Of a stretch of 4,263 nt of DNA, positions 553 through 4,263 are shown piece by piece. The first letter of the stretch is position 1; every line of letters starts with the position of its first letter. The position numbers were made by a program, and so were the translations under genes. The DNA lies in IMG/VR virus record IMGVR_UViG_2563366903_000003, positions 1 to 4,263 of that record. One strand, 5' to 3'. The notes under the pieces are model-generated. The model did no database searches. It worked only from the letters and a program-made list of their open reading frames with translations, and was not told the DNA's origin. Origin of the DNA: a virus (taxonomy: Duplodnaviria > Heunggongvirae > Uroviricota > Caudoviricetes).

Positions 553-716
553 CCCGTCACGCACTTCTGTAATACCACAGACAGGGAAGCCAGTTTTTCT
601 TCAAACATTTGTGCCTGCGCGGCTATTTTCCCCTCAAATGTGCGCTGTAAATCCGCCAGCACTGTGGAGAATTCTTCACCCAGCGCACGGATAATGGACA
701 GTTCACGCTCAGTCAT
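1..716 (-). CDS. Tandem-repeat protein, partial (start at 716; C-terminus beyond window start); function unknown, probably head/virion-associated
   Basis: Minus-strand frame is open from ATG at 716..714 to the window edge (about 238 codons, translated by hand, no stop). The ATG overlaps the portal stop codon as ATGA (716..713). A purine tract GGGGGA lies about 10 nt upstream. Unique N-terminus MTERELSIIRALGEEFSTVLADLQRTFEGKIAAQAQMFEEKLASLSVVLQKCVTG is followed by 54-aa units DGRDYDP[D/E]VLQKAVNDAVANIP[Q/V]PA[D/N]GKS[L/I]TPDDVRPMLEQMVKEAVSHIPVPR. All 6 nucleotide differences between copies 163..324 and 325..486 are synonymous in this frame. Missing from the ORF track because no stop codon falls inside the window. 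Confidence 0.75.
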   Translation of the reverse strand, partial: MTERELSIIRALGEEFSTVLADLQRTFEGKIAAQAQMFEEKLASLSVVLQKCVTGDDVRPMLEQMVKEAVSHIPVPRDGRDYDPDVLQKAVNDAVANIPQPADGKSLTPDDVRPMLEQMVKEAVSHIPVPRDGRDYDPDVLQKAVNDAVANIPQPADGKSLTPDDVRPMLEQMVKEAVSHIPVPRDGRDYDPEVLQKAVNDAVANIPVPANGKSITPDDVRPMLEQMVKEAVSHIPVP

Positions 717-2077
717 TTTCGCAGTATCCCCCTGAACATCGCCTTCACCGCATCACGCTCTGTTTCGCTTATGGCCTTATTACCGTCAGACGCGCCCTCC
801 TGGCGTGTGCCTGACGACGTTTTCCCGGAAGACGCGAACGGATCCTCACGGGCATCACGACGGGACAGCGCCTCCAGACTGTAGTTCTGCTGCTGAAGAT
901 ACAGTGCATCGCCTCCTGCCAGGGGCGGCAGATTCTCACGCTTCCTAGCCTCATTGGGCGTCAGCAGCGTATTTTTCACCGATTCACCCAGTGTTTTCAT
1001 GCGCCGTTCGCTGTCCATTCTCAGCAGCGTGGTGACATCAAATTCCGTACTCTCGTTTTCTCCCGTTTCCAGCGCCTCATCCAGTAACAGTTCAATGGAC
1101 TCAATCAGCGTCTGCAGACACTGGGAATAATACTGCTGCTCCAGCGCTTCCACGTTGTCACTGGAAGGCGGTTGTCCCACACCAATCTTGTAGGCCGGGA
1201 CACGGAACACCGAACAGACAATTTCAGCGGTCATCTTCAGTTGTTCCACCGTCTGCGCATCCACCGGTGAAAACGTTGTGGGGTTGTATTTTGCCCCGTT
1301 GCTCAGAATGGCCGTTTTCCCCGCATTTTCGCCGGTATACCCGCTGTCCCAGTTGCTCTTCAGTTTTTTCGCATTTTCTTCCGTTATACTGCCGGGGATC
1401 TCAATCACCCCGGACGGCCTGCCGCCATTTCTGAAAAAAGACGTTGAATTTGCCTGAATATGATGCCCCTGCGTGGCCGCCAGCCCGGCAGCATACACCG
1501 GCGGCAATCCTATAAGCGGATGAAAAAAACAGTTAAACCGGTCGTGGATCACTTCCCGGGCAGGCACCGTCACCGCCTCAGTGATCCCACAGTTCCGGTC
1601 CGGCGTGATGCGGTAGAACACCTCGCCGTCATCCGCCACCAGAGGTTCAACCCGGCTCCAGTCCAGAATACGCAGTTCTTTGATCTGCCCCCGGGAGTTA
1701 CGGATTTTCAGCACCACCGTATTGCCGTGACGCAGTTTGGCGTTCAGCCACAGTTCAAAAAACTGGATACGATTCTGCTGTGCATTGGGACGACGACAGA
1801 GACGGGCAATATCTCCCTGCCGTTTTTCACGGCGGATCCCCTGTGTATCGGTCTGCATCAGGCGCAGTCGCATTTTGGCGATATCCTGGGATATCAGCGA
1901 AATGCAAGAAAACACCGCATGAAAGGAGAGGACGGCTTCAGGATCGGCTTTCACGCCCTGCTGCCAGGCGCCGGAAAAGGGCTCAGCCACCGCCTGAAAC
2001 AGGCTGGTCCAGCCCGCCTCTCTTACGTCACGTCCTGATTTCTGGTTTTTTCGGGTTCGCCGTAAAAGGTTCCACAT
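713..2077 (-). CDS. Phage portal protein (HK97-family-like), 454 aa
   Basis: ORF from the track. Length and motifs fit HK97-type portals: conserved N-proximal block AVFSCISLISQDIA and central block GLPPVYAAGL...WDSGYTGENAGKTAILSNGAKYNP...TAEIVCSVFRVPAYKIG. ATG at 2077..2075 is preceded by GGAG (2089..2086, 8-nt spacer), with an in-frame stop 5 codons upstream so no alternative start. Stop TGA at 715..713. Confidence 0.85.
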   Translation of the reverse strand: MWNLLRRTRKNQKSGRDVREAGWTSLFQAVAEPFSGAWQQGVKADPEAVLSFHAVFSCISLISQDIAKMRLRLMQTDTQGIRREKRQGDIARLCRRPNAQQNRIQFFELWLNAKLRHGNTVVLKIRNSRGQIKELRILDWSRVEPLVADDGEVFYRITPDRNCGITEAVTVPAREVIHDRFNCFFHPLIGLPPVYAAGLAATQGHHIQANSTSFFRNGGRPSGVIEIPGSITEENAKKLKSNWDSGYTGENAGKTAILSNGAKYNPTTFSPVDAQTVEQLKMTAEIVCSVFRVPAYKIGVGQPPSSDNVEALEQQYYSQCLQTLIESIELLLDEALETGENESTEFDVTTLLRMDSERRMKTLGESVKNTLLTPNEARKRENLPPLAGGDALYLQQQNYSLEALSRRDAREDPFASSGKTSSGTRQEGASDGNKAISETERDAVKAMFRGILRK

Positions 2078-2244
2078 TCGCCATGCTCCGCATCACGTTT
2101 CTTTTTCTGACCTGCCGGACGTCGCACCGTGATGTACTCCGCCTTTCCCAGGCGAACCAGCACCTCCGCACACGGCTGTGCCACATCACGGATATCCCCG
2201 GTCCGGGCATCATGCGTGCCCTGCAGATATCGGATCTTTGCCAT
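2023..2244 (-). CDS. Hypothetical small protein (73 aa), tentative
   Basis: ATG-initiated ORF in the 211-bp capsid-portal spacer. Codon usage is mostly ordinary and composition is balanced (MAKIRYLQGTHDARTGDIRDVAQPCAEVLVRLGKAEYITV...). It overlaps the portal start by about 55 nt in another frame and has no well-spaced linear Shine-Dalgarno. No recognisable motif. Confidence 0.25.
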   Translation of the reverse strand: MAKIRYLQGTHDARTGDIRDVAQPCAEVLVRLGKAEYITVRRPAGQKKKRDAEHGECGTFYGEPEKTRNQDVT

Positions 2245-2253
2245 AACCTGTTA

Positions 2254-2273
2254 CGGGAGGCGCACACCTCCCG
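2254..2273 (-). promoter_or_regulatory. GC-rich stem-loop (7-bp stem CGGGAGG/CCUCCCG, 6-nt loop) just downstream of the capsid gene stop; possible transcript stabiliser or attenuator
   Basis: Perfect inverted repeat 2254..2260 / 2267..2273. It sits 15 nt after the capsid TGA (2291..2289) and directly after an AGGAGG (2280..2275). No U-tract follows on either strand, so it is not a canonical intrinsic terminator. Confidence 0.45.
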
Positions 2274-3650: not shown

Positions 3651-4226
3651 TATGGTCTTTTCCTTATGAAAAACGGTTGTTGACTGTGCCGCAGCGCCGG
3701 CAGAAGATGCGATTTTCACCACCGGTTTCCGGTTGCCGGACGCGGCAGAAAACTGGCGGTCGTAAGATTTAATGGTCCGGATGGTGCATTCCGCATTCGC
3801 GGGCACGGTGACGGCAGACACCTCCATCAGCTCCCAGCGCAGAAAATGCAGTCCGCCTCCGTCCAGAAAGGTGTATTCATGAGGACGGAAGCCCACGGAC
3901 AGCCCCCTGACCAGCCCGGTCTTAATGGCCGCCCAGGCCTCATCCAGCCGGGCAGCCAGTTGCGATGGCATATCCGGCACGGGCTTCGCCAGTGTTGCCG
4001 TGATTTCCAGCCCTTCGCTGACCCGGCGCACCGTACACTGCCCCACCGGGCGGGAATGGTCATGCTGCCAGAGAAACGGGATCGCACTGCCAAACTCCGC
4101 GCCCTCCGGCTCCAGGATGTCACCATCCCGATCCGGAGAAGGCGTTGACGCAATCCCGGTGATCACCCGCTCATCCTCACTGAAGGATTTCACCGTCAGC
4201 AGGGAGCAGGCCCGTTTAAGAGTCAC
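2289..4226 (-). CDS. Prohead serine protease / scaffold-like domain / major capsid protein fusion (HK97-like), 645 aa
   Basis: ORF from the track. GTG start at 4226..4224 with AGGAGG 5 nt upstream. The N-terminal ~190 aa carry prohead-protease motifs (FLWQHDHSRPVG, GLSVGF, EVSAVTVPANAE). Residues ~193-285 are E/K/A-rich and coiled-coil-like (MNIGEQIKSFENKRAALAASLEEVMTKAAEEGRTLDVEEEE...LKRLRELEAG). The C-terminal ~360 aa are consistent with an HK97-fold capsid protein. Stop TGA at 2291..2289. Confidence 0.88.
   Translation of the reverse strand: MTLKRACSLLTVKSFSEDERVITGIASTPSPDRDGDILEPEGAEFGSAIPFLWQHDHSRPVGQCTVRRVSEGLEITATLAKPVPDMPSQLAARLDEAWAAIKTGLVRGLSVGFRPHEYTFLDGGGLHFLRWELMEVSAVTVPANAECTIRTIKSYDRQFSAASGNRKPVVKIASSAGAAAQSTTVFHKEKTIMNIGEQIKSFENKRAALAASLEEVMTKAAEEGRTLDVEEEEHYDNTAAEIRQVDAHLKRLRELEAGKAATAQPVKQAGNGNVAAVTSAPVIRVEQKLDKGIGFARFAKSLAAAKGVRSEALEVARRQYPDDSRLHHVLKSAVGAGTTTDPQWAGSLSEYQEYAQDFIDYLRPQTIIGRFGQGGIPALRQVPFNIRVHAQVSGGAAGWVGEGKAKPLTKFDFESITFSHAKVSAIAVLTEELIRFSSPAADALVRNALAEAVVARLDTDFVDPKKAAVADVSPASITHDVKGTASTGNPDADAEAAFGQFVAANLQPTGAVWLMSSTNALALSMRKNALGQKEYPDMTLLGGSFQGLPVIVSQYVGDQLVLVNAPDIYLADDGGVAVDMSREASLEMQSEPTGDSTTPSPVELVSMFQTGSVAIRAERWINWRRRRTAAVAVITGVNYGSASGG
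3651..4226 (-). other. Prohead protease domain of the fusion ORF (approx. aa 1-192)
   Basis: Candidate catalytic His in WQHDH (about aa 55-57) and Ser in GLSVGF (about aa 110), plus the EVSxVxxPAN block, match the HK97 gp4-type prohead protease pattern from memory. Boundaries are approximate. Confidence 0.6.
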
Positions 4227-4231
4227 ATCAG

Positions 4232-4237
4232 CCTCCT
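4232..4237 (-). promoter_or_regulatory. Shine-Dalgarno AGGAGG for the protease-capsid ORF
   Basis: Minus strand reads AGGAGG-ctgat-GTG. The adjacent out-of-frame ATG is followed immediately by TGA, so GTG at 4226 is the usable start. Confidence 0.6.
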
Positions 4238-4263
4238 GAAAATAAAAAAACCGCCGCAGCGGT
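4238..4263 (-). terminator. Putative rho-independent terminator (3' half only; hairpin 5' arm lies outside the window)
   Basis: Minus strand reads ACCGCUGCGGCGG followed by UUUUUUUAUUUU, i.e. a GC-rich segment then a U-tract, directly upstream of the capsid gene RBS. The complementary arm is not within the window, so the hairpin cannot be confirmed. Confidence 0.3.

Follow-up and report, generated by a model that had tools for sequence, protein, structure and literature searches.

We analysed a 4,263-nucleotide stretch of viral DNA (Caudoviricetes; positions 1 to 4,263 of IMG/VR record IMGVR_UViG_2563366903_000003), hereafter the window, which carries part of a phage head-gene module. All coding in the window lies on the minus strand. 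In the direction of transcription, a hairpin with a T-run is followed by a gene for a fused prohead protease and major capsid protein, a small open reading frame (ORF), the portal gene and the 5' part of a gene for a repeat protein (Table 1). An earlier interpretation made without database searches, called here the sequence-only reading, had reported this order together with a distance of 211 bp between the capsid and portal genes; on re-reading of the minus strand, its coordinates, its gene order and this distance all proved correct. It had further proposed a rearranged or differently regulated head module, a distinct phage lineage, or a satellite or domesticated capsid element.

Table 1. Features of the head-gene module, listed in the direction of transcription (positions in the window).
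Feature	Position	Strand	Details
Terminator-like hairpin and T-run	4240..4263	minus	ACCGC-TGCG-GCGGT (4263..4250), then TTTTTTATTTT; 5' arm cut by the end of the window and scaffold
Shine-Dalgarno (SD) sequence of the protease-capsid gene	4232..4237	minus	AGGAGG, 5 nt before the GTG; read from sequence
Protease-capsid ORF	2289..4226	minus	645 aa; GTG start
Protease domain core	3768..4085	minus	aa 48-153; conserved motifs LWQHDH and GLSVGF
Candidate internal translation start	3648..3665	minus	SD-like AAGGA (3665..3661), 10 nt before the in-frame ATG of Met193 (3650..3648)
GC-rich 9-bp hairpin	2253..2274	minus	ACGGGAGGU-GUGC-GCCUCCCGU; begins 15 nt past the capsid stop; no T-run
Conserved small gene	2023..2244	minus	73 aa; fills the 211-bp interval; overlaps the portal start by 55 nt
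HK97-family portal gene	713..2077	minus	454 aa
Post-portal repeat gene, 5' part	1..719	minus	239 codons; ATG at 719..717; runs off the window

The protease-capsid ORF is annotated on the source scaffold as a 657-aa product, open at the contig end. Its translation comprises an HK97-family prohead serine protease (about aa 1-160), a linker, a coiled-coil delta, or scaffold-like, region from Met193 and an HK97-fold major capsid protein. Peptidase_S78 (PF04586) matches aa 48-153 with 34.1 bits (cut-off 21), and the conserved motifs of this segment were aligned with the separately encoded proteases of Burkholderia, Moraxella and Stenotrophomonas phages. Because TIGR01543 scores 46.6 bits on the protease domain, under its cut-off of 59, the protease is a divergent S78 member. 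For the capsid part, matches were obtained with Phage_capsid (PF05065; aa 386-635, 53.1 bits, cut-off 24.2) and with TIGR01554, the HK97 major capsid model (aa 204-584, 77.9 bits, cut-off 27.5). Moreover, phrog_617 matches the 645-aa protein with an E value of 4.5e-261, and ORF56 of phage BP-4795 is 99.2% identical to it at the amino acid level. The protein is thus both an HK97-type major capsid protein and an S78 prohead protease. The portal is likewise an HK97-family member, matching PF04860 (E 7e-81), TIGR01537 (355.8 bits, cut-off 112; E 2e-106) and positions 1-451 of phrog_2271. A damaged copy of the protease-capsid gene, frameshifted into 494 + 131 aa, occurs in one metagenomic contig (L092:7852-9789).

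The window is the exact reverse complement of the last 4,263 bases of scaffold KE136894.1 (333,009 bp; assembly GCA_000408105.1). On the TerL side it stops at the scaffold end, within the hairpin, and on the other side at a run of 5,310 Ns within the tandem-repeat gene. Beyond this gap, the scaffold encodes a fragment of an Ig-domain major tail protein, two tail chaperones (Phage_TAC_1 and Phage_tail_T) and an HK97-type tape measure. The portal of the window recurs with identical sequence on many contigs, in which HNH, TerS and TerL genes lie directly upstream and a complete lambda/HK97-like tail module lies downstream; five metagenomic or genomic contigs of this kind share one layout, from holin through the tail genes M, L, K and I. 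The statement that no tail or terminase genes are visible is therefore true of the 4.2-kb window, which lacks them on account of assembly breaks, one at the scaffold end and one at the tandem repeats, but tail genes are present on the same scaffold and TerS and TerL on the identical-portal contigs. Some of these contigs also carry a small gene with a TonB_C domain between the lysis genes and DUF3950/HNH (L090:3386-3712; L094:4208-4534), which may be an accessory (moron) gene.

The closest relatives of the module are found in Stx-type phages. Ninety-one phage records, including BP-4795, YYZ-2008, JLK-2012, 2851, 1717, WGPS6 and phi330, are 95-97% identical in nucleotide sequence over 100% of the window (96.5% over 100% for BP-4795; 96.1% for phi330), and a match is present in 1256 of 5426 complete Escherichia coli genomes, about a quarter. 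In the map of BP-4795, Q, stx1AB, the lysis genes, HNH, TerS, TerL and the hairpin are followed by protease-capsid, ORF57, portal, a second gene named 'portal' (the repeat protein), the Ad1 adaptor, head closure and a gp10-like gene, and then by tail terminator, major tail, chaperones, tape measure and tail tip. The layout of phages 2851 and F349 is as in BP-4795; in prophage F349, IS629 is inserted in TerL (L008:1-2474). Near-identical modules are carried by inducible Stx phages of 44-65 kb, and stx-negative prophages such as PPompW and PPyecE contain the module as well. One carrier, phi330, is a plaque-forming siphophage that reaches 10^9 plaque-forming units per mL, has a 55-nm head and a flexible 145-nm tail, and uses OmpC as receptor (PMC12502783).

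More distant capsid homologues were found in phages of Salmonella (FSL SP-016, 77% amino acid identity), Pseudomonas (PAJU2, 48%), Stenotrophomonas (SOVA965, 46%), Burkholderia (vB_FUB47a, 39%) and Moraxella (Mcat, 38%). The order in FSL SP-016, PAJU2, SOVA965, vB_FUB47a and Mcat6 is TerS, TerL, protease/capsid, one or more small ORFs, portal and adaptor. As in the window, PAJU2 and FSL SP-016 have a fused protease-capsid ORF with an internal SD motif and ATG, and the PAJU2 gene is already annotated as 'prohead protease fused capsid protein'. By contrast, separate ORFs encode protease and capsid in the Burkholderia, Moraxella and Stenotrophomonas phages. PAJU2 and SOVA965 further differ from the window in having one additional ORF between the capsid and portal genes.

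Consistent with these maps, a survey of one genome per species (GTDB), scanned with the capsid alignment, yielded 80 loci with capsid identities of 43-81%, from Alpha-, Beta- and Gammaproteobacteria plus two probably mis-binned metagenome-assembled genomes. These loci were scored by hidden Markov models of reference TerL, protease, capsid, portal and Ad1 proteins. In 79 of the 80 loci the portal gene follows the capsid gene on the same strand, in none (0/80) does it precede the capsid gene, and TerL lies upstream in 76/80. Protease and capsid form one ORF at 52 of the 80 loci and separate ORFs at 26. Because the survey loci and the named relatives share this order, the placing of capsid before portal characterises an entire lineage, a large and old branch of HK97-type head modules. 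Next in similarity, at 23-29% identity, come the portals of mEp235, phiP27, SfII, PY54 and Gram-positive phages. Of these, only the map of PY54 was checked, and there the arrangement is the usual one (TerS, TerL, portal, protease, capsid, Ad1). The usual HK97 order of TerL, portal, protease and capsid, which is typical but not strictly defining, is not that of the window's lineage. In a Virfam study, the phi4795 portal was 22% identical to the HK97 portal, and the neck proteins were 49-76% identical (PMC4362835). In E. coli, recombination has joined this capsid/portal branch to neck and tail genes resembling those of HK97 and lambda.

From these results taken together, we conclude with high confidence that the window represents an intact section of a prophage's late operon, which encodes virion assembly, that this prophage is a long-tailed lambdoid one of Stx type, like BP-4795, 2851 and phi330 (genera Marienburgvirus and Pankowvirus), and that the gene order is fixed across the lineage. 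Across Alpha-, Beta- and Gammaproteobacteria, the layout of this lineage runs TerS, TerL, protease and capsid (fused or separate), small protein, portal, in some members a post-portal protein, head-tail adaptor and tail. The sequence-only reading was right that the order departs from the HK97/lambda canon, since it runs TerL, protease-capsid, small ORF, portal where PY54 shows the usual arrangement. Its suggestion of a distinct phage lineage is also borne out by the same order in relatives across three proteobacterial classes and in all but one of the survey genomes. The idea of a rearranged head module had to be given up: close homologues routinely show the identical order in ordinary complete phage genomes, with TerS and TerL upstream and the adaptor and tail genes downstream. 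Because the order recurs in finished phage genomes and throughout the survey, it is not a locus-specific rearrangement.

Three other accounts of the locus were weighed against this conclusion. An origin of the module in a phage satellite, of the capsid-forming phage-inducible chromosomal island type, or in a domesticated element such as a gene transfer agent would fit the lack of any terminase or tail gene within the 4.2 kb. We give it only a very slim chance, given the tail chaperones and tape measure that follow the N gap on the same scaffold, the HNH, TerS and TerL genes immediately upstream and the complete tail module downstream in every identical-portal contig, and the near-identical modules of the 44-65-kb inducible Stx phages, among them phi330, which carries the module and forms plaques (PMC12502783). 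Slimmer still is the chance that the order reflects a recent local rearrangement or an assembly artefact of the scaffold. The assembly around the window is indeed poor, being bounded by the scaffold end and the N gap, but the 4,263 bases form one gap-free contig to which the order is internal, and phage genomes finished independently have the same order, as do 79 of 80 genomes of three proteobacterial classes. A last possibility is compatible with our conclusion and would leave the order normal, namely that this particular copy lies within a prophage remnant that is defective and cannot be induced, like many of the lambdoid prophages in Shiga toxin-producing E. coli. Genomes with a match have a median of six matching places each (some of them repeats matching one another), damaged relatives exist in the form of the F349 TerL with IS629 and the contig with the frameshifted capsid gene (L092), and the source scaffold breaks inside the prophage. 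All four ORFs of the window are nevertheless intact and 99% identical to those of functional phages, and we regard a remnant as possible yet rather unlikely.

The distance between the capsid and portal genes, from 2288 to 2078, is exactly 211 bp. Its length had been reported correctly, but it is not an empty spacer: the interval holds the conserved 73-aa gene. The product consists of a domain of about 40 aa (M.KIRYLQ.THD..GD...A.VLV.LGKAEY) and a basic tail, matches phrog_829 with an E value of 1.7e-38 and corresponds to ORF57 in the BP-4795 annotation. Jackhmmer placed the gene in 23 loci, each time between capsid and portal and including all Enterobacterales relatives and Moraxella phage Mcat6, and the homologues align with 25-60% identity to the window protein. 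Because the ORF is conserved at the protein level, the interval contains a real gene. Searches of Pfam, NCBIfam and PDB sequences, also with a 14-sequence profile, gave no match for the 73-aa product. In the other Enterobacterales and Moraxella carriers, the small ORF stops 3-31 nt short of the portal homology; in E. coli it extends for 18 more codons, and the 55-nt overlap with the portal start is confined to the E. coli lineage. Since the ORF of the relatives ends before the portal homology, the E. coli ORF has probably lost its original stop codon.

The protease-capsid ORF itself contains a candidate second start. In a protein alignment, Met193 aligns exactly with the start codons of the separate capsid genes in the Burkholderia, Moraxella and Stenotrophomonas phages; the linker around it is otherwise poorly conserved, and the TIGR01554 match starts shortly after it, at aa 204. 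An SD-like motif lies 8-11 nt before the internal Met in each fused gene, as AAGGA in E. coli and Salmonella and AGGAGG in PAJU2. Among 55 fused genes (52 from the survey together with BP-4795, PAJU2 and FSL SP-016), 51 have an ATG at the Met193 position, and an SD-like motif is found at all 51 of these. When only core 5-mers (AAGGA, AGGAG, GGAGG and GAGGT) were counted as SD in the 80 survey loci, 37 of 48 such sites carried one versus 9 of 676 other in-frame ATGs of the same genes (Fisher p 1e-43, a value that overstates independence because the compared sequences are related).

In its simplest reading, this pattern suggests that the fused ORF most likely makes two products, a protease-delta-capsid chain and a more abundant delta-capsid chain. 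Initiation at Met193 would produce a protease-free delta-capsid protein of 453 aa. Translation from the GTG would yield the full-length chain, and the more abundant chain would most likely arise from the internal SD and ATG. The bulk of the capsid protein would then be made protease-free, and the full-length chain would supply the procapsid with protease in a small dose and covalently tethered; there the protease would be built in and would subsequently cut away itself and the delta domain. More broadly, we lean modestly towards the view that the 'protease-capsid fusion' may be a nested gene pair conserved in phages of Alpha-, Beta- and Gammaproteobacteria, which, with the hairpins and the capsid-before-portal order, would constitute a lineage-specific expression design and not a neutral shuffle. 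A literature search, in a library that is incomplete, yielded no paper reporting a nested start in a protease-capsid gene, and the supplement of the phi330 paper (PMC12502783) contains no mass-spectrometry map for phi330. The nested start may be new, and it offers a cheap, testable hypothesis for protease dosing in a very widespread capsid family.

The capsid cistron is flanked by two hairpins. The one on the TerL side lies, in relatives, in the 63-bp intergenic region between TerL and protease-capsid, and in BP-4795 its full 7-bp stem, GGACCGC/GCGGUUU, is present 63 bp downstream of the TerL stop. A simple terminator scan scores a hairpin with a T-run on this side in 24 of 82 related loci. 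In 24 aligned gammaproteobacterial loci, from Escherichia to Pseudomonas and Azorhizophilus, the five pairs of the core stem CCCGC/GCGGG are kept in 22-24, the loop is variable and the upstream flank is fully diverged. Because covariation is weak (double changes at two of seven pairs), the case for the hairpin rests on the kept stem and the variable loop, a comparison that indicates that the element is real. The terminator-like signal noted ahead of the capsid gene is thus conserved in relatives, but it does not exceed chance in the window alone, where the stem is cut by the window end and a terminator scan gives 1 site versus 3.5 ± 2.0 in shuffles. The GC-rich hairpin past the capsid gene folds with -16.9 kcal/mol (z -2.3). 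In 60 of 85 related loci, the 90 nt past the capsid ORF contain a perfect hairpin of 6 bp or more, versus 10% of random windows, and the stem sequences differ completely between lineages. Just upstream of this hairpin lies an AAGGAGG that is too far from the ATG of the small ORF for an ordinary SD.

A scan of the window for sigma-70-like promoters found 0, with 1.7 expected. There is no room for a promoter before the capsid gene, because the TerL-side T-run and the capsid SD are only about 12 nt apart. Intrinsic terminators do not halt Q-modified polymerase in lambdoid phages. Because the module is located downstream of Q, stx and the lysis genes, we infer that it belongs to the Q-antiterminated late transcript. 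On the model of lambdoid biology, a single late transcript would include the head genes, and the Q-modified RNA polymerase making it would read through the hairpin and T-run after TerL. The hairpins that bracket the capsid cistron would, by the same analogy, most likely serve mRNA stabilisation or attenuation and raise capsid output over that of the neighbouring genes.

The hairpins could instead be true terminators that split the terminase genes, the capsid gene and the genes from portal onward into separately regulated units, which is the 'differently regulated' module of the sequence-only reading. In its favour are the conservation of the hairpin and T-run after TerL in 24 loci and the hairpin past the capsid gene in 60 of 85, with a T-run also in 22 of 82 such regions. 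We nonetheless consider it improbable, since the window has no sigma-70-like promoter and the gap between T-run and SD is too short for one, TerL and protease nearly abut without any hairpin in the alpha- and betaproteobacterial members, and Q-modified polymerase would pass such terminators. Moreover, a terminator before the gene for the most abundant virion protein would contradict the required stoichiometry.

Several points weigh against a late-operon piece with a nested start and stabilising or attenuating hairpins. The contig of the window carries no terminase genes, and the scaffold is gapped. Within the window, the terminator-like site does not exceed chance, and the SD statistics take related sequences as independent. 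We infer Q-modified transcription, translation from the internal start and the hairpins' role alike, and the papers searched gave no transcript or protein data for this head module. The gene order, on the other hand, is already known, since public annotations of well-studied Stx phage genomes have shown it for many years; the literature search returned nothing specific describing it or the 'protease-capsid fusion'. It therefore carries little weight as a discovery, and the nested start and the hairpin bracket are the sole points possibly worth an experiment. For prophage and satellite finders, it means that capsid before portal, or a contig with head genes only, is no sign of a satellite or a defective element.

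Downstream of the portal gene, the start of the repeat gene overlaps the portal stop as ATGA, through which the two genes are translationally coupled. The repeats occupy 1..551 as 3.4 copies of a 162-bp (54-aa) unit (TRF) and are preceded in the protein by an N-terminal coiled coil. A 185-aa plus-strand ORF at 15..572 was rejected as a gene; most likely it arises on the antisense strand as a consequence of the tandem repeats. In BP-4795, the full-length homologue of the repeat protein has 461 aa and a weak C-terminal match to CBM_5_12 (L001:15548-16933). Among near-identical phages the protein measures 299-461 aa and the number of 162-bp repeats varies, the homologue of Stenotrophomonas SOVA965 has collagen repeats instead of the 54-aa repeats, and the Burkholderia and Moraxella phages are without a post-portal protein. 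The protein looks fibre-like and fast-evolving.

In an alignment of the portal/repeat junction, a G-run that lies 13 nt before the portal stop reads GGGGG in the window, BP-4795 and F349 but GGGGGG in phage 2851. The extra G fuses portal and repeat protein of 2851 into one 859-aa ORF (L007:6030-6050; window 713-740). Salmonella FSL SP-016, which is without the G-run, has split portal and repeat genes with the ATGA overlap, and the split form is also found in the Pseudomonas and Stenotrophomonas relatives. Because FSL SP-016 is split without the G-run and only one extra G fuses the genes of 2851, the split, ATGA-coupled form is ancestral. A programmed frameshift at the junction was rejected as the default explanation on these same observations. 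The 859 positions of the phrog_2271 'portal' span portal and repeat protein because some records fuse both. Two annotations stem from the 2851-type fusion and mislead: the repeat gene is named 'portal protein', and the split portal, although the ancestral form, is named a 'pseudogene'.

Compared with known phages, the window is identical in gene content and order to BP-4795 (Marienburgvirus), 2851, 1717, WGPS6 and phi330 (Pankowvirus), from which it differs only in small details, namely the number of 162-bp repeats and the six-G fusion of 2851. It shares with the HK97/PY54 module an HK97-type portal, an S78 protease, an HK97-fold capsid protein with an N-terminal scaffold-like region and an HNH gene beside the terminase genes, and the neck and tail genes are also HK97-like (PMC4362835). 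The differences from that module are that the portal block and the protease-capsid block are swapped in order, that protease and capsid form one ORF, that a conserved small gene precedes the portal and that portal identity is only about 22-26%. Protease-capsid fusions are a curated, recognised class, represented by NCBIfam NF045541 ('prohead protease/major capsid protein fusion protein'). The window protein matches this model only weakly, over aa 48-287 (E 1.8e-14; 53 bits, model cut-off 525), and is of a different fusion family.

Nested protease and scaffold genes are known from lambda C/Nu3 and herpesvirus UL26/UL26.5. At the sequence level, the protease-capsid gene has the hallmark of the lambda C/Nu3 type, an in-frame internal start codon with its own ribosome-binding site at a domain boundary. 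As in both of these systems, the long ORF begins with the maturation protease, and the internal in-frame start would yield an abundant, protease-free assembly protein. The predicted products differ in the C-terminal part that they would share, which here would be the delta domain together with the capsid protein and not a free scaffold.

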